A stretch of 64,000 bases of DNA. Source: Escherichia phage FFH2. Below are positions 5,100 to 31,806 of the stretch, in pieces. Both the position numbers and the translations under genes were made by a program. Each line of letters opens with the position of its first letter. Within the stretch, counting starts at the first letter, position 1. Location: sequence record KJ190158; one strand, written 5' to 3'. The notes under the pieces are model-generated. The model was not told the DNA's origin, ran no database searches, and was given only the letters and a program-made list of their open reading frames with translations.

Positions 5100-6082
5100 T
5101 GCTAAAACTGTGCACTGCAAAGATCATTGCTGACAGCATTTCCGAGAAAGGTAAGCGTATCACCACTTTTGAACTAGAGTATCCTCGAATTATTCACTCA
5201 GAGCTTATGACGCACCGAGTATTCAGCCGAAACGCCATGTCTTCCCGTGCAGTGCCTGTCGGCAAGATGCTGCAGCAGATTGTGGAGAATCCGGCAATGC
5301 CAGTTCGCTTCGGTGTAAATAAGCGAGGGATGGAAGATGGTGGGGAACACGATCAAAAGATCCGTGTAGAGTACACTGACATGGAGCTAACCCCTGAAGA
5401 GTTTTGGAAAGAAGCTGCAAAAAACGCCGCTTGGCATGCAGAGAAGTTCGCCCTTGCTGGTTACCATAAACAAGTATGTAACCGCTTAGTGGAGCCGTTT
5501 CAGCGCATGAAAACAGTTGTAACAAGCACAGAGTGGAATAATTTTTTCCATCTCCGTTGCTGGCACGATGCGGATCCTACGATTCAGATGTTGGCTAATT
5601 GTATGTGGGAAGCTCTTGTGAATAGCACTCCTGAAATCCTTAAACCAGGTCAATGGCACACTCCATATGTAGAGCACGTTTATTTGGACGGAGAGTTTAA
5701 CTACGCTGTACGTGACACAGAAGGAAAGCTCTGCATTCTTGATACTAAAGAAGCTCTGTCTATTAGTGCTAGTTGCTGTGCACAAGTATCTTATCGAAAT
5801 ATTGACAGCACGTTTGAAAAGGCAGACAGTGTGGCTAAAAAATTGATTGGTGGGGATCGTATTCATGCAAGCCCTTACGAACACCAGGCAACACCTATGG
5901 ATCATGATAACGCAATGGAACGTTTAAACTACTACCTATCTTCATGTGAAATCACACAAGACATTAGTACTTGGCAGGAAGGTGTAACCCATCAAGACCG
6001 TGATGGTAAATTCTGGTCTGCCAACTTTTGTGGGTGGGTTCAGCACAGACAACTGCTTAATAACCACTTCGTGAAAGGTTAA
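5099..6082 (+). CDS. thyX: Flavin-dependent thymidylate synthase ThyX-like
   Basis: THRVFSRNAMSSRA matches ThyX RHRxxSxNxxSxR signature; RBS aaggaga. Confidence 0.6.
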   Translation: MLKLCTAKIIADSISEKGKRITTFELEYPRIIHSELMTHRVFSRNAMSSRAVPVGKMLQQIVENPAMPVRFGVNKRGMEDGGEHDQKIRVEYTDMELTPEEFWKEAAKNAAWHAEKFALAGYHKQVCNRLVEPFQRMKTVVTSTEWNNFFHLRCWHDADPTIQMLANCMWEALVNSTPEILKPGQWHTPYVEHVYLDGEFNYAVRDTEGKLCILDTKEALSISASCCAQVSYRNIDSTFEKADSVAKKLIGGDRIHASPYEHQATPMDHDNAMERLNYYLSSCEITQDISTWQEGVTHQDRDGKFWSANFCGWVQHRQLLNNHFVKG

Positions 6083-6111
6083 TCCTATCACAGCGATAGG
6101 TAACTTTTGTG

Positions 6112-6140
6112 TTGACTAATAGTATCAGATAATCTATAAT
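6112..6140 (+). promoter_or_regulatory. sigma70-type promoter TTGACT-N17-TATAAT
   Basis: Near-consensus -35 and -10 hexamers with 17-bp spacer, upstream of ATG 6181. Confidence 0.6.
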
Positions 6141-6180
6141 AATGGCTCACTTTGTTGGTGAGCCAGAAATGGAGACAGAT

Positions 6181-6642
6181 ATGAGTAATGTTATGATTCC
6201 TAAAAAGACATTTATTTCAGTTACTTTAGATTTCCTAGCTACCGTCCCTGGGTTTAACGTTCGCACACGAAACGGTCTCCGAGCTGCACTCTTCGCCGTA
6301 GGGTTTGATTTAAAAAATATTGATGTTCTTCGTGGAAAAAACGTTAGATGCAAAAATAAGCCAACCCATTATCGAAAGGCAGATGTATTTGCTGGTGTCA
6401 TGCGTGCAGACTTTAGATACCCACAAATGTATAACGGTGTAGATATTTTAGATGTAGATAAAGCACCTGGTGAGGCAATGCTTGTTCAAGATCTTCCGTA
6501 TGATATCCCTGTAGAGGATCGTGTTAATGTAAGAAAGTATACAAAACAATCTGAAAAGGCTGAAGATATTCATATTGTTGATGAACCTTTCAATTTTGAA
6601 GATCTGCATCGCCTAGAAAAATTATTCGGTATTGAAAGCTAA
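6181..6642 (+). CDS. hypothetical protein
   Basis: ATG 6181 with ggagaca RBS downstream of promoter; earlier ATGs lie upstream of predicted transcript start. Confidence 0.5.
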   Translation: MSNVMIPKKTFISVTLDFLATVPGFNVRTRNGLRAALFAVGFDLKNIDVLRGKNVRCKNKPTHYRKADVFAGVMRADFRYPQMYNGVDILDVDKAPGEAMLVQDLPYDIPVEDRVNVRKYTKQSEKAEDIHIVDEPFNFEDLHRLEKLFGIES

Positions 6643-22007: not shown

Positions 22008-22289
22008 ATGAAAAAGATTAACAGTGGTGAAGTTGAGTTTAAACTTGTCGGGAAAGGCACTTACTGGGAAGTTCGTCAAAAGGTATATTTGTTCGGTCTT
22101 ATTCCCTATTGGTCTAAATTCTACTGGGGAGCTAACGAGTGGGGAAGATACGCCACCAAATCAATGGCACTTATTGGTATAGCAGAGTACATTGCAGCCA
22201 GAGATAGGGTTGGAGACACTTATTACTATACTGCGGACGATATTCGTAACAGTGTTTACGTCCCACAACCACCTGATGGAGACCGTTGA
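22008..22289 (+). CDS. hypothetical protein
   Basis: ATG 22008 after gaggaag. Confidence 0.45.
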   Translation: MKKINSGEVEFKLVGKGTYWEVRQKVYLFGLIPYWSKFYWGANEWGRYATKSMALIGIAEYIAARDRVGDTYYYTADDIRNSVYVPQPPDGDR

Positions 22290-22513
22290 TGAAAGTTAAA
22301 GTTTTAGATTCAAGCTTCTATATTGGTCAGGAGCCTTTAGTAGGAAAAGTGTTTACTGCTGTCCCTAACGAAGATTACCCTGACCTTTTAAAAATAAAAG
22401 GAGCAGATCTTATTGCCGCTGGTGCATCTCAGGAATGCTTTGACAGTCAGTGGACCTACAACTTTGCCCTAGGTGAGGATGTAGAGGTAGTGGAGGACGA
22501 TCATGAAGGTTAA
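22289..22513 (+). CDS. Small acidic protein, MKVK-family paralog
   Basis: MKVKVLDSSFYIGQ..IKGADLIAAGA..VEVVEDD. Confidence 0.5.
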   Translation: MKVKVLDSSFYIGQEPLVGKVFTAVPNEDYPDLLKIKGADLIAAGASQECFDSQWTYNFALGEDVEVVEDDHEG

Positions 22514-22757
22514 AATTCTTGATTCTAACGTCTACTTGGGACAATCCTTCCTGAATGGAAAGGTCGTTCCTGCGGTATACTTTGAAGGGTTGCCGTGGGA
22601 TGATCCTGTGCGGCAACATCACAGTTATGTAGGCCACAACGTGGTGTTTATCTTGGGATCAGACCTGATCACCGCTGGTGCACCTGAATATTATTTCGGG
22701 GAAGAGTCCTACTATGCCTTTGGGGTAGGGTCAGATGCAGATATTGTAGAGCTGTGA
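22503..22757 (+). CDS. Small acidic protein, MKVK-family paralog
   Basis: MKVKILDSNVYLGQ..LGSDLITAGA..DIVEL. Confidence 0.5.
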   Translation: MKVKILDSNVYLGQSFLNGKVVPAVYFEGLPWDDPVRQHHSYVGHNVVFILGSDLITAGAPEYYFGEESYYAFGVGSDADIVEL

Positions 22758-22769
22758 TGGGTAACCGTT

Positions 22770-23168
22770 GTGAAAAATAAACTGTTTAAAGTTACAATGA
22801 AAATTCGCGGGGCTTGGAGCGTAAAGCAAGGGCGTATTCCAGAATTTGAGAAAGACTTCTACGTAGTCTCCACCTCGGAGGAGGCTGCATGCTGGCAGGC
22901 TGGCTATGCCTATGCAAGAACCTGGTACGAAGGGTACCAGACTGGGGGCTATGACGGAGAAATTATCAGCAAGGGTGTAGAAGAAATTAATGTGTTGACA
23001 AGTGAAAAAGTTTTTGTTATAGTGCATCCAGATTCCAGAGTGAAGCATTACTGGAATGCCAGAACAAAAACTTGGACACCGTTTGCAGATTCTGCTACGC
23101 CACTTTTAAACCAGAAAGCTCTTGACTCTGCCCCAAGTTATGGGGTTGTTGAAGAAAAGCTAAACTGA
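22770..23168 (+). CDS. hypothetical protein, paralog of 24975-25370
   Basis: Shares VIVHPDSRVKHYWNARTKTWTPF with VMRHPHSNIAYYWDVLNNEWTPDL. Confidence 0.5.
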   Translation: MKNKLFKVTMKIRGAWSVKQGRIPEFEKDFYVVSTSEEAACWQAGYAYARTWYEGYQTGGYDGEIISKGVEEINVLTSEKVFVIVHPDSRVKHYWNARTKTWTPFADSATPLLNQKALDSAPSYGVVEEKLN

Positions 23169-23185
23169 AACAGTGAGGTGTCACC

Positions 23186-23476
23186 ATGATGGATTTAATT
23201 CTAAATATTGATAACGCAGGAGAGTTTAAAGACGATGGTGTAACAAGCATGGACAAACCCTGCTCTGCTAAGGTTGACTCAAAATGGACCTACAAGTTTG
23301 ACGGAGAGATCTTCGCAAATGATGAGAAGGTTGTAGATGCTGCAGCCATTTTAAACGCTCTAGGGTACGACCCTGTGAATTCTTTGATCAAGGATCCTGT
23401 TGAGTTTGCAGAGTATGTTCGAAAAATGGCAGATCTTGCTGTGGATATTTTAAAAACTATCGACAACAAGCTGTAA
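23186..23476 (+). CDS. hypothetical acidic protein
   Basis: ORF only. Confidence 0.45.
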   Translation: MMDLILNIDNAGEFKDDGVTSMDKPCSAKVDSKWTYKFDGEIFANDEKVVDAAAILNALGYDPVNSLIKDPVEFAEYVRKMADLAVDILKTIDNKL

Positions 23477-23482
23477 AAACTG

Positions 23483-23511
23483 TTGACACAACGCTTCAGA
23501 TTTAGTATCAT
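23483..23511 (+). promoter_or_regulatory. sigma70-type promoter TTGACA-N17-TATCAT
   Basis: Consensus -35; followed by hairpin 23521-23544 and hpf ATG 23559. Confidence 0.5.
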
Positions 23512-23558
23512 TGTTTTCAAAGAGGGTTTGGTTCCCTCTTCTTTAAAAGGAACACGTT

Positions 23559-23876
23559 ATGCAAATTGAAATCACTGGCAACGTAGAAATCACTGAAGGT
23601 ATGGTGTCTTTCATTTCCCACAAAATGTCTAAGCTGGAGCGTTTGCACCCCTCTGCCAACTATGCACGTGTGAGTGTAAAAGTTGAAAATGATCACCAGG
23701 AAGTTATGGCGCTCATTTTTGACAATTCTGGAAAAGAAGTTATTGCCAGGGCTAAAGGTAGTGATGCTTACGAGGCAACTGACCGTATGGTAGATGTTGC
23801 AGCACGTCAGCTGGCTAAATGCGGTGGAAAGAAAGGTAAGGGGAAAGGCAAAGTAAAGATTGACTTTGGAGAATGA
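23559..23876 (+). CDS. hpf: Ribosome hibernation promoting factor / RaiA (YfiA) family homolog
   Basis: MQIEITGNVEITEGM..KLERL..VSVKVEN..GKEVIARAKGSDAYEATDRMVDVAARQLAK aligns along full length with E. coli HPF/RaiA. Confidence 0.8.
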   Translation: MQIEITGNVEITEGMVSFISHKMSKLERLHPSANYARVSVKVENDHQEVMALIFDNSGKEVIARAKGSDAYEATDRMVDVAARQLAKCGGKKGKGKGKVKIDFGE

Positions 23877-24013
23877 GGTGCTACAATGGGCGTGATTAAG
23901 AAACTAGTCCCAAATGTAGAGATTGCATGCTTTGAAATTATGTTTGCAATCGCAGTTGTAGTTAATGTGTTAGGTTACGGCTATTAATATCAAATAATTG
24001 AGGAGACCTCTAA

Positions 24014-24283
24014 ATGAAAATTAAATTATTCAAAACTGAGCTGGCAGACAAAAACTGTGGACTGGTTGAAGGCATGATTGTCGAAGCACGACCAGTTGAC
24101 TATATGAAGGTGGTTCGTGATGCCCTGGGTGAAGGTTTTGATCTGATGGAGCCAGCTCTGCGAGAAGATGTTATCGAGATGGCTAAAAAGCACACACCTG
24201 AAGGAATGGTGGTGTTTGTTGCACCAGGTAACGGAGAAGAGTTGATTGTAACTCCGGATGTGTATGAGATTGTAGAGGAATAA
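24014..24283 (+). CDS. Small acidic protein, MKVK-family paralog
   Basis: MKIKLFKTEL..YEIVEE. Confidence 0.5.
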   Translation: MKIKLFKTELADKNCGLVEGMIVEARPVDYMKVVRDALGEGFDLMEPALREDVIEMAKKHTPEGMVVFVAPGNGEELIVTPDVYEIVEE

Positions 24284-24374
24284 TCCTGCTTGGATTAGCA
24301 TACTTCCTCGACAAGGAAGGTTTGTAATTATTTGTGGGAAAGGAATCCCAATCTCTTACCATAGGTGATACTAT

Positions 24375-24638
24375 ATGATTGTTTATTTTAAAACTTCAGG
24401 TGGATACCCTGATTCTCAAAGCTTGATCGGAAAAACGTGCACAGCATACTCACCTCTTGATGAGGAGGTAGGCGATATTCTACGAAATATGTATCGGATT
24501 GATCCCCAAGAAGCCTTTGATCAAAACCTTGTATTTGTCAAGGGCTCAGACATGAAGTCTTTGGGAGCATTCCCTGAAGCAGATGATGATGCCGTTTATT
24601 CGTTCATGACCCCTTTTGAAGCTATGGTTGTCGGGTGA
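24375..24638 (+). CDS. Small acidic protein, MKVK-family related
   Basis: IGKTCTAY..VKGSDMKSLGA core. Confidence 0.45.
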   Translation: MIVYFKTSGGYPDSQSLIGKTCTAYSPLDEEVGDILRNMYRIDPQEAFDQNLVFVKGSDMKSLGAFPEADDDAVYSFMTPFEAMVVG

Positions 24639-24642
24639 TAAT

Positions 24643-24975
24643 ATGAAAGTACGCTTTATTGGTGAAACAATTCCTGTGCATCTCCGGTCGCCTGAAGATT
24701 CTGCAGATCTTGCATCTCAGAAGGCGAGAGGTTATGATAAGAAAGTAATCTCAACCGATGTAGAACTTGAGGCTACTAGTCTACCTGACCCTGCTGCATT
24801 CTTTAATCATTATGGATACTATTTCAGCAATCTGATGAATATCGGTGAGCTTGTGTTTATTAGTGGTGGAGAAATTGTTAGCAAGCTTGGCGGCGATCCG
24901 GATGTCTTTCATGAAACCTGTCCTTTTGCATTTGTGGTAGGTTCAGATGTGGAAGTTATTGAGGAGGTGCGGTAA
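24643..24975 (+). CDS. Small acidic protein, MKVK-family related
   Basis: ATG 24643; C-terminal GSDVEVIEEV. Confidence 0.45.
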   Translation: MKVRFIGETIPVHLRSPEDSADLASQKARGYDKKVISTDVELEATSLPDPAAFFNHYGYYFSNLMNIGELVFISGGEIVSKLGGDPDVFHETCPFAFVVGSDVEVIEEVR

Positions 24976-25370
24976 TGGTAAGCCTATACCGTGTTGAGTA
25001 TAGCTCAGATACTGTGTACAACGTAAGAAGCAAAGATCGCAGCGACAGAGTGCAAGAAATGTATGTTCTTGCCGACAGTCCGTTATCTGCAGCGTTCAAG
25101 GCAGGGGCTCTTGCATCTCGTTGGAAATTTGAAGGCGGATCTTTCTATGAAGAAACCCTTGAAGATTCTGTTGTTATTTCTTCTGTAGAGGTTTCAGATG
25201 ACTACGAAGGGAAAAAGTTCGTAATGCGGCACCCACACAGCAACATTGCGTACTACTGGGATGTTCTGAACAACGAGTGGACCCCAGATCTTCAGAAGGC
25301 TACTGTGCTAACACCGTTTTTGGCAGATAAGTTCCCACCAGAAGGTAATTTATCCGCACTGTTTCAGTAA
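24975..25370 (+). CDS. hypothetical protein, paralog of 22770-23168
   Basis: Shared HPxS..YW..WTP block. Confidence 0.5.
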   Translation: MVSLYRVEYSSDTVYNVRSKDRSDRVQEMYVLADSPLSAAFKAGALASRWKFEGGSFYEETLEDSVVISSVEVSDDYEGKKFVMRHPHSNIAYYWDVLNNEWTPDLQKATVLTPFLADKFPPEGNLSALFQ

Positions 25371-25388
25371 TTTTCTTGCACACAGGTG

Positions 25389-25417
25389 TTGACAACACCA
25401 ACCCTGTGTGAAATAAT
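25389..25417 (+). promoter_or_regulatory. sigma70-type promoter TTGACA-N17-AATAAT
   Basis: Consensus -35 with A/T-rich -10. Confidence 0.45.
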
Positions 25418-25449
25418 ACCTTCATCTTAACAAGACGGGAGACTGATTG

Positions 25450-25707
25450 ATGAAGATTAAACTGAAAAACCTTGAAATGGCAGAGATTCAGGATGGTGTT
25501 GATTTCCGCTCTAAAGATGGTGACATCTTAGAGGTAAATCTTCCAACCTACGAGCTGATTAAAGGTTTTGGCAACGTTCAGGAAGAGGATATTCCAGAAA
25601 TTCTTATGATGTTGATTCTTGACGGAACTGTGTTTGTAGGTGAAGGTGAGAACGCTATTGCAATCCCAGGCCATTTTTATGAAGTAGTTGACGAAGAGGT
25701 GCTGTAA
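25450..25707 (+). CDS. Small acidic protein, MKVK-family paralog
   Basis: MKIKLKNLE..FYEVVDEEVL; ATG after gggag. Confidence 0.5.
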   Translation: MKIKLKNLEMAEIQDGVDFRSKDGDILEVNLPTYELIKGFGNVQEEDIPEILMMLILDGTVFVGEGENAIAIPGHFYEVVDEEVL

Positions 25708-27768: not shown

Positions 27769-27774
27769 TGACAA

Positions 27775-27800
27775 AGAGGGGGGCTTGGGCCCCTCTTTTT
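27775..27800 (+). terminator. Intrinsic terminator gagggg..cccctc plus ttttt
   Basis: GC-rich stem-loop and T-run. Confidence 0.6.
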
Positions 27801-29527: not shown

Positions 29528-30841
29528 TAAGTTCTTCTCTTTTCTTTTACCGAGTAATTCGGGTTTTCTGTTCTCTTCGGTTTGAAGGGGTATAGAGATA
29601 CACCTGAGTGAACAGGGTGAACAACCGAACATTTGGCTATGGCATTAGCATGGCGAAGCGGACGGGTGACGAAAGAGGGGCCGGAGGACACCAGTCACTG
29701 CCATATGATATATGGGTGATAACCTGAAGAGTCTGAATAAGTGTTTAAGTACCAGTCAGAGGAAAAGGTGAATGGTAGCCGAAGGGGGAGGGGGGTTTCT
29801 TGTATCTTTAATTTGTATATTATGTATACACTTGTAAACCAATCTCATCTGAATTTGTTTACCACACAAAGTGGATAGGGACAAATATTACCTATTAAAC
29901 TTGAATTATTTATAGAAATACCACAACACCACTTAAGTCTTTGATTTTACACACAAATCCTACAGATATTCACCCTCCATATTTAACATACCTGTAACAT
30001 ATTCCATACCCTACCTGACCGATCAATTCACCCAACTACATCCCCATATTTTCCCTGTCTGTACTACCCCTGCCCCGCCGGGAGTCCCGTCATATCTGGC
30101 TTTCCAGCAAATATCACACCCACAAATATCATTGCCTGAAGAGGGTTTCATCCCATAATACATGCCTTACCTGAAGAGCGCTTCATACACCACGTAAATT
30201 TTTTAATTGACCCCCTCCCCGCCGCCGGAGAGGTTGGCTTTTCCCACACAGACCTGAAGAGTCAGCCAGAAATATCTGAACAGGTCCAGCTATGCCACGA
30301 TTTTGTGCTTGTCCTACAGGAGTGCCTCCCTGTCAGGAGCCGGTAGCGACTGGAGTGCTGCCAGGCGGACGAAATGGGAATCATTCTCATTCTTATAACA
30401 ATTCTCAAATATCGAGGCAGTGAGGCAAATTAATAGGTGAGGCCGTTCACACAATGGCACAACATTTGCAACCTATCTTGTGGGAGTGAATGAGAATACC
30501 TATCATTGTGAGAATAGTTATCATTACGGGCAATTTAACATAATACCCATTATGCGCACCACTGGCGATCCATACAGGGATTGATAACATGGGTTACTGT
30601 TTACACACATAACAATTATATTTCTTACTATTTGTGTGGGATATAGTTAGCAGCCGATAGATTAGATATTGACCTGTAGACTTCCAACCGTCCAGACGTC
30701 TAAACGCCCACACAACAAGGGTTATACATACACAACTGAATGTAAACAGGGCCGCAAAAATGCTACCATACAAGCTTGTAAATTTTTCATGCAGCACTTG
30801 ACAAAGAGGAGGAAAACTTGTCTGACACTTTAGACACAATA

Positions 30842-30888
30842 GTGACATAATATGACATAATGGTGACACTGAACATAATTGACATGCC
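30842..30888. repeat. Tandem 10-bp iterons (G/A)TGACA(T/C)(A/T)AT
   Basis: gtgacataat-atgacataat-ggtgacactg-aacataattgacatgcc. Confidence 0.55.
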
Positions 30889-30992
30889 TGACTGTTTACA
30901 TAGCTAACTATTCATACAGAAATGATAAGCCATGCCATTCGTTTGCATGATAATAATTAACTTGTTTACAATAGATGACATAATATAAAAGC

Positions 30993-31025
30993 AGGGCAAC
31001 TATTAGAAGATCTATAGTTGCCTTG
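30993..31025. repeat. Near-perfect palindrome around GGCAACTAT / ATAGTTGCC
   Basis: agggcaactat-tagaagatc-tatagttgccttg; 9-mer recurs at 31052 and 31159. Confidence 0.55.
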
Positions 31026-31774
31026 CTTGTTATGTCATGATTAACTAAATACAAGGCAACTATGATCTGATTAATAGTTTGCAGACAAACTATCACGGGG
31101 GTGATGGTTACTGCTTTTATATTATGTCGCGACTCCGTCGCGCCATGCCATTCGTTTGCATAGTTGCCTTATTGTTACAGATAAAATAATTGTATTGTTA
31201 ATTATTTCTTATCTTTCTCTTAGTCATCTAATGATTCCAGTCAGTATAGTAATGTACAGTAAACATTAGACGACTAAAGATTTCTCTGTTTATTATAACT
31301 TACCGTGACAATTTCAGGCTGTTTACGAAAAATGTTGACACCTGGGCCGATTTATGTTATGCAGTTTACACGAATAATTATTTTATGCAGGTATTGACTA
31401 TTCCGTTATTCTATGGTTGGAATAAATACTTAGCAGACTATAGAATGGTGAGCGTACGTAAATTCTGAGATCTGGCGGCTATAGTTATACTCGATTTTTC
31501 ACGTAGAACACGCTTTTGTTAGTGTGTAAGTGTATGACTTATAAAGATTTTTAGTTGTTGACAAGATATTGAAGATGTGCATCAGGTTAAATTTTGTGCA
31601 ATAGCGGCATTACGTGCAATTTTGAGAGAGAAAACGGGTAAAAATGGCCTTGCTATCACACAATGAAAAATTATGCAATAGTTATTTTACATGTATGTTT
31701 GTACAGTGTGTGGGATTGATGGCTAGTCAATTATTCCACTTGCCAGGCTGGGCCGTTTGTGGTAGGAGAAATAC

Positions 31775-31806
31775 AGACAAAAAGAAAGGGGCCTTTTAAA
31801 GCCCCT
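31775..31806 (-). terminator. Intrinsic terminator for leftward cluster
   Basis: aggggc..gcccct stem followed on minus strand by ttctttttg. Confidence 0.55.

Follow-up and report, generated by a model that had tools for sequence, protein, structure and literature searches.

HPF-type factors occupy vacant ribosomes, and do so irrespective of whether the mRNA awaiting translation is that of a phage or of the host; in E. coli both HPF and YfiA bind vacant ribosomes in this manner, and high-salt washes strip both of them. Residues K80, R83, K87 and K91 form the ribosome contacts common to the two proteins, with further contacts provided by K89 and by K26 and Q29, whilst H55 and E60 touch the C-terminus of uS9 (bioRxiv 10.1101/2025.10.07.680626). 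In solved complexes the C-terminal end of helix alpha-2 contacts uS7, and it is from the end of this helix that the tail of YfiA leaves in the direction of the RMF site (bioRxiv 10.1101/2025.10.07.680626).

Members of this family are also found in phages; a preprint of 2025 that traces how hibernation factors evolved makes no mention of phages. The protein ABI79209 of phage rV5 was included by Mizuno et al. (2019, Nat Commun, PMC6375957) among virus-encoded ribosomal proteins, as a viral HPF. When it was expressed from pBAD24 in E. coli, its peptides were detected in the crude extract, but none were present in the high-salt-purified 70S or 100S ribosomes of these growing cells, and the level of 100S particles was unchanged (PMC6375957). 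Growth phase, lost binding and stripping by salt were given as caveats by the authors, who suggested that the viral HPF might compete with the host factor and thereby prevent the formation of dimers (PMC6375957). As the cells were growing and the washes were of high salt, the negative mass spectrometry result is compatible with ribosome binding: such conditions are poorly suited to hibernation factors. No later functional work on the gene was found in the literature searched. Proteins of about 110 aa with the S30AE fold are also encoded by three jumbo phages, namely Cronobacter phage GAP32 (K4F6Q6), Escherichia phage PBECO4 (L7TII8) and Xanthomonas phage XaC1.

The locus studied here lies in a 64,000 nt stretch of Escherichia phage FFH2 (KJ190158), which is referred to throughout as the window. 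An earlier note on this DNA had described a phage-encoded HPF/RaiA protein with its own promoter, and had delimited the locus from position 23483, which is the start of the -35 hexamer. Over the 3 kb surrounding the gene, the sequence is about 98-99.5% identical to 119 records of rV5-type phages of the genus Vequintavirus, 117 of which encode the HPF protein at 90% identity or more; the window thus derives from an isolate closely related to rV5, with DNA identities of 99.5% (record 'C7'), 99.4% (O157 typing phage 14) and 98.4% (rV5). In the rV5 annotation (DQ832317) the gene is ORF144, a 'sigma 54 modulation factor', and the promoter is marked as 'Sigma70-type promoter; P144', with the labels HPF, RaiA or 'ribosome hibernation factor' being used in other records. 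The product of the rV5 gene, gp144 (ABI79209), is 98% identical over 105 aa, with L52F and R64K the only changes; rV5 and the window also agree in promoter P144 and in the genes to either side, and nothing of substance differs between the two loci. Given the rV5 annotation and the work of Mizuno et al. (2019), the finding is already known: the gene, its family and its promoter are all in GenBank, and the gene and family were published in 2019. What is added here is that the promoter is one of about 20, that the gene is under purifying selection, that a sister lineage exists, that contact residues have been lost and that the protein has a basic tail.

Two irregularities were seen amongst the matching database records. 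Several name the HPF gene 'ATP-dependent protease La type I', a misannotation, and 18 records labelled 'Campylobacter phage' (MG0656xx) match positions 22500-25500, with identities of 97.9-99.5% among the matches listed. Since this level of identity equals that of E. coli rV5-like phages, the Campylobacter host label is doubtful.

Table 1. Features of the hpf locus, in coordinates of the window
Feature	Position	Strand	Details
Sigma-70-type promoter, equivalent to rV5 P144	23483..23511	+	TTGACA (23483-23488), 17-nt spacer, TATCAT (23506-23511)
Stem-loop	23520..23540	+	7-bp stem (AAGAGGG / CCCTCTT), 7-nt loop; situated where the transcript is predicted to begin
Shine-Dalgarno-like AAGGA	23547..23551	+	7 nt 5' of the ATG; read from the sequence
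hpf-type ORF	23559..23876	+	105 aa; opens at the first start codon past the upstream stop
Coding part of the S30AE-type domain	23559..23822	+	PF02482 match, AlphaFold2 model, Foldseek
Residues 89-105 and stop codon	23823..23876	+	Lys/Gly-rich basic tail GGKKGKGKGKVKIDFGE, ending K-I-D-F
Second promoter-like site	23860..23887	+	TTGACT-16 nt-TACAAT; 10/12, TG before the -10; consensus match only

The phage gene is a real, diverged copy of that for the bacterial ribosome hibernation factor HPF, and its membership of the HPF/YfiA family is very nearly certain. A profile search, one of the checks that the earlier note had put forward, exceeded the curated cut-offs of both family models: PF02482 (Ribosomal_S30AE) matched residues 3-88 in the Pfam search at 48.2 bits (E = 1.8e-12; cut-off 23.7 bits), and TIGR00741 scored 46 bits (cut-off 40.9 bits). 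A phmmer search of PDB sequences retrieved the E. coli HPF entries 2rql, 4v8h and 6h4n with E values of about 5e-12. The claimed alignment to bacterial HPF was likewise recovered, with residues 1-89 of the phage protein pairing with residues 1-89 of the E. coli protein (phmmer E = 5e-12), and all of the motifs that had been quoted in its favour lie within this alignment (MQ.ITGN.VEITE, KLE, KVE, A.G.D.Y and ARQL.K). Scores against the equivalog models are much lower relative to their cut-offs, being 55.5 bits against 125 for the short HPF of the E. coli YhbH type (NF007780) and 17.4 bits against 158 for RaiA/YfiA (NF007654); by these two scores the phage protein is nearer to HPF than to RaiA. 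The C-terminal dimerisation domain of long HPF proteins, about 60 aa in size, is absent from the 105 aa phage product, in which Pfam finds PF02482 only.

The predicted structure was also that of the family. An AlphaFold2 model computed from a 25-sequence alignment had a pLDDT of 82, with strands predicted at residues 2-7, 33-43, 46-55 and 60-67 and helices at residues 13-29 and 70-92. When this model, rather than a solved structure, was used as a Foldseek query against the PDB, all 36 matches at E <= 1e-3 were HPF, YfiA or pY chains, the best of them superposing with an rmsd of 1.0-1.1 Å and TM scores of 0.79-0.93. These included HPF of Vibrio cholerae (4hei_A; rmsd 1.0 Å) and ribosome-bound HPF of E. 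coli (6h4n_x; rmsd 1.1 Å, 42% identity), hence the model and the experimental HPF structures agree to about 1 Å in the second check put forward in the note. Neither of the two outcomes that the note had named as refuting its claim, the lack of a significant profile match or a fold different from that of HPF, was therefore obtained. Ranks 37-50, which follow the HPF matches, include weak similarities to dsRNA-binding domains.

Alignment of the phage protein with 21 bacterial relatives allowed a comparison of individual residues. All six of the near-invariant positions of the family (T12, K22, A63, D69, Y71 and D75) are retained, as are R83, K87, K91, K26 (K25 in the phage protein) and E60 of the contact set, which the phage protein therefore has in common with E. 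coli short HPF (YhbH; 2rql, 4v8h, 6h4n). It differs from the latter in lacking R17, K80 and K89, in having a Lys/Gly-rich disordered tail, in scoring only 55.5 bits on the equivalog model with the 125-bit cut-off, and in having been expressed without promotion of 100S formation. The three basic residues are replaced in both of the phage lineages considered below, R17 by V, K89 by G or S, and K80 by V in the window protein and by T in its sister. The core substitutions M70A, I74T and L41V introduce residues found in none of the 21 bacterial relatives.

The Lys/Gly-rich tail reported in the earlier note is present as residues 89-105, with a net charge of +4. Within it, residues 91-105 have a pLDDT below 50 in the AlphaFold2 model and on this basis are predicted to be disordered. 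E. coli HPF, at 95 aa, ends 7 residues past position 88, such that the phage protein is the longer by 10 residues, and a K/G tail was found neither in the 21 aligned bacterial relatives nor among the 24 proteins detected by an exhaustive phmmer search. The tail of the sister lineage has a different sequence, SKSKGIDKRTAKWDY, with a net charge of +3 and an end of K-W-D-Y; both tails thus share a terminal K-[IW]-D-[FY], and the KIDF end is retained by the variants within the genus. E. coli RaiA/YfiA (protein Y; 1n3g, 4v8i) has the same fold and resembles the phage protein in extending past helix alpha-2, an arrangement that in YfiA goes with 70S rather than 100S hibernation. However, the likeness in sequence between the two is weak (17.4 bits against a cut-off of 158; E = 0.5 in the PDB search), and the YfiA tail, of 25 residues, is acidic, with a net charge of about -3, whereas that of the phage protein, of 17 residues, is basic. 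In this position a disordered polybasic tail would be well placed for binding rRNA near the RMF site, where a clash with RMF is to be expected, and it could compensate for the lost K80 and K89.

Relatives of the protein are few. When 1.84 billion representative proteins were searched exhaustively with phmmer, just 24 matches were obtained at E <= 1e-3, and a word-indexed protein search recovered only five proteins. The closest relative is a protein of 103 aa with 63-64% identity (P0004), which defines the sister lineage; beyond it the best match is an HPF of the E. coli type at 45% identity, with the closest bacterial HPF proteins lying at 42-45%. Small ORFs in a collinear arrangement surround the sister gene, which was found on contigs ranging from 44 to 137 kb (L002-L005, with the gene at 6001-6312), one contig carrying it being contained within the E. 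coli assembly GCA_012894635.1, and no record in the phage collection searched carries this version. A scan of IMG/VR viral contigs with the single protein added only two more contigs, both from the same genus. The jumbo-phage proteins are far more distant: those of GAP32 and PBECO4 are 20-22% identical to the window protein in a fold alignment and were not matched by it in the sequence search. GAP32 was placed elsewhere in the HPF tree by Mizuno et al. (PMC6375957), and the jumbo-phage and rV5-type genes look like independent acquisitions.

Comparison of the two lineages also gives an indication of the selection acting on the gene. Across its whole length pN is 0.26 and pS 0.77, the latter being saturated, which gives a pN/pS of about 0.33; by region, pN is 0.22 for the domain (pS 0.78) and 0.46 for the tail. 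That pN is so much lower than pS indicates that the gene is under purifying selection. The two versions are 63% identical, and identities for the adjacent ORFs range from 27% to 65%, so by this measure the gene is as conserved as its early-type neighbours, or more so. Transfer from a bacterium that was 'relatively recent', as proposed previously (PMC6375957), was considered and rejected, being disfavoured by this selection and by the divergence from bacterial HPF proteins, the closest of which are only 42-45% identical.

A consensus promoter had been described about 50 bp upstream of the gene, and this too was found as claimed: the site matches the consensus at 11 of 12 positions, and 47 nt separate the end of its -10 hexamer from the ATG. 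The -35 hexamer and the eight bases preceding it are identical in the sister lineage, in which the remaining intergenic DNA has diverged. Across the 64-kb window there are 20 sigma-70 sites matching at least 11 of 12 positions, compared with 1.8 +/- 1.3 once the sequence has been randomised; the + strand carries nine of them, at 6112-29500, and the - strand 11, at 32322-58525, all 20 being oriented with the neighbouring ORFs and spread over both early-type gene blocks. With so many more sites than would occur by chance, each pointing in the direction of the local genes, the hpf promoter is very probably real. The idea that it is special to this gene was rejected, since about 20 sites of the same quality, this one included, are present in the window. 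The paper describing rV5 reported 33 promoters near to the E. coli consensus, which agrees with the many sites of the window. The literature searched yielded neither transcripts nor a timing of expression for the gene, and no transcript data for any Vequintavirus.

The stem-loop in the leader begins about 2 nt past the predicted transcription start. Its exact pattern occurs twice in the window, where 0.02 occurrences would be expected, and the leader as a whole folds with an energy no better than that of shuffled sequence (z = -0.6). The second arm of the stem falls within a stretch of 26 nt for which the sister lineage has no equivalent. A role as a regulatory RNA or terminator was rejected on the grounds of this absence, the shuffled-like energy and the lack of any match in Rfam; the hairpin is better viewed as a minor, lineage-specific feature, for which stabilisation of the mRNA is a possible role. 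At 27773-27798 a GC-rich hairpin, AAAGAGGGG...CCCCTCTTT, has the appearance of a terminator on both strands and coincides with an annotated rho-independent terminator of rV5; its stem resembles that of the hpf leader. The second promoter-like site listed in Table 1 overlaps the 3' end of hpf, points at the small ORFs downstream and is unannotated in rV5.

Taken together, these observations suggest a protein of the HPF type, bearing a tail, that binds idle 70S ribosomes without driving the formation of 100S particles. As the Vequintavirus (rV5-type) homologue of bacterial short HPF, the gene would belong to an extended block made up of small early genes, and its near-consensus sigma-70 promoter would probably be used early in infection by the host RNA polymerase. 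The product would then bind vacant host ribosomes at the HPF/YfiA site, in the tRNA/mRNA channel of the 30S subunit, through contacts that may involve K25 (E. coli K26), E60, R83, K87 and K91, and the 17-residue tail would extend from the C-terminus of helix alpha-2 toward the RMF pocket, as does that of YfiA. Idle ribosomes would in this way be held not as RMF-dependent 100S dimers but as protected, reversible, RMF-free 70S particles that can quickly be used again, and in hosts that grow slowly or are under stress the phage would still have translation capacity at its disposal. We infer the ribosome binding, the path of the tail, the antagonism toward 100S formation and the benefit to the phage, and give the mechanism as a whole a probability of roughly one half. 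The unchanged 100S level upon expression (PMC6375957) fits a factor that does not promote the formation of 100S particles. Counting against the mechanism are the negative high-salt fractions, the loss of R17, K80 and K89, the core substitutions M70A, I74T and L41V, and the low equivalog score.

The first two of these points carry over to a proposal of the earlier note, which had also suggested that the protein could shut down or protect host ribosomes. That it belongs to the HPF/YfiA family and is encoded by a phage stands, on the strength of the profiles, the predicted fold, the 117 Vequintavirus records and the conserved promoter; the functional part stays conjectural, in view both of the absence of rV5 HPF from salt-washed ribosomes, with 100S levels unchanged, in the only published test (PMC6375957), and of the loss of three basic positions conserved in the family.

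The same fold and tail may be read in other ways. The protein might instead act against hibernation or dormancy, occupying the HPF site whilst its polybasic tail blocks the RMF/anti-Shine-Dalgarno pocket, a reading that taken whole we consider unlikely. Were it true, RMF-driven 100S formation would be prevented, including under DRT2 defence, RMF having been reported to rise when this system acts against phage; the A site, and likewise the 3' terminus of 16S rRNA, would be shielded from nucleases or from abortive-infection toxins that target the ribosome; replication would be possible in stationary-phase or defence-arrested cells; and the terminal K-[IW]-D-[FY] would represent a docking element for a ribosomal protein. 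It is likewise doubtful that the ribosomal function has been lost and that the HPF fold, itself similar to a double-stranded-RNA-binding domain, has been reused, for instance in binding RNA of the phage or of the host or in luring some host protein as a decoy, with the tail supplying a new affinity. Such reuse would accord with the detection of the protein in the extract but not in purified 70S or 100S ribosomes, with the loss of R17, K80 and K89, the lineage-specific core substitutions, the weak matches to the folds of dsRNA-binding domains at Foldseek ranks 37-50, and the isolation of the protein, which has only 24 matches among 1.84 billion proteins at E <= 1e-3 and no bacterial relative nearer than 45%. 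However, most contacts (R83, K87, K91, K26 and E60) and all six near-invariant positions are kept, the model superposes at 1.1 Å on HPF in its ribosome-bound form (6h4n_x), and the mass spectrometry negative stems from high-salt ribosomes of growing cells.

The unchanged 100S level upon expression bears on the proposition that this is a canonical short HPF, which together with host RMF turns 70S ribosomes into 100S particles and so drives hibernation during infection. Although the HPFs of E. coli and Vibrio are the best matches and the HPF equivalog model is nearer than that of RaiA, no change in 100S particles could be discerned when it was expressed in E. coli (PMC6375957), the score lies far under the equivalog cut-off, and the 17-residue tail leaving the end of helix alpha-2 is without counterpart in the 95 aa HPF; a lytic phage would, moreover, presumably gain little from dimerising ribosomes that it needs. 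We consider this improbable. A role in host shut-off, with the protein produced in excess at an early stage so as to silence translation either generally or selectively, would suit the host-type, near-consensus promoter and the early-looking block of small genes, but arabinose induction left ribosome profiles unchanged with no toxicity reported (PMC6375957). Factors of the HPF type cannot, in addition, separate phage from host mRNA. We consider this reading, too, improbable. Hardest to credit, and already disfavoured, is a functionless passenger gene of recent capture: Mizuno et al. did take the similarity as a sign of relatively recent transfer (PMC6375957), but identity to the closest bacterial HPF proteins is only 42-45%, 117 records and a collinear sister lineage carry the gene, its pN/pS ratio, obtained with saturated synonymous sites, is about 0.33, and the promoter is conserved.

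A virus that carries a ribosome hibernation factor of its own offers an interesting example of how phages control translation in their hosts. As rV5-like phages serve as biocontrol agents, such a factor could bear on the infection of non-growing bacteria in a manner relevant to phage therapy. Handles on the function of the protein are provided by the absence of K80, K89 and R17, by the conserved motif at the end of its basic tail and by the strong purifying selection.

HPF is the sole recognisable gene in its stretch of the genome: all ten of the flanking ORFs belong to PHROG families without assigned function, and none has a Pfam match. Neither tRNA genes nor Rfam families were detected in the 64-kb window. 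Paralogous small ORFs surround the gene, at 22286-22757, 22770-23168, 24375-24638 and 24975-25370, and in its vicinity are two or three copies of phrog_5009 and two of phrog_7379 (131-132 aa), the latter positioned one on each side. Directly 3' of hpf is an ORF encoding a hydrophobic protein of 33 aa (23886-23987; phrog_15151, rV5 ORF145), which is absent in the sister lineage. Further downstream, the region at ~29600-31800 is poor in ORFs and partly AT-rich (GC 0.34-0.37 at 30.5-32 kb), and sits at the point where the promoter-like sites switch strand; it has no match in Rfam and corresponds to rV5 104013-106618, reported to have 'no observable ORFs'. This region is possibly a replication origin or the source of a non-coding RNA.
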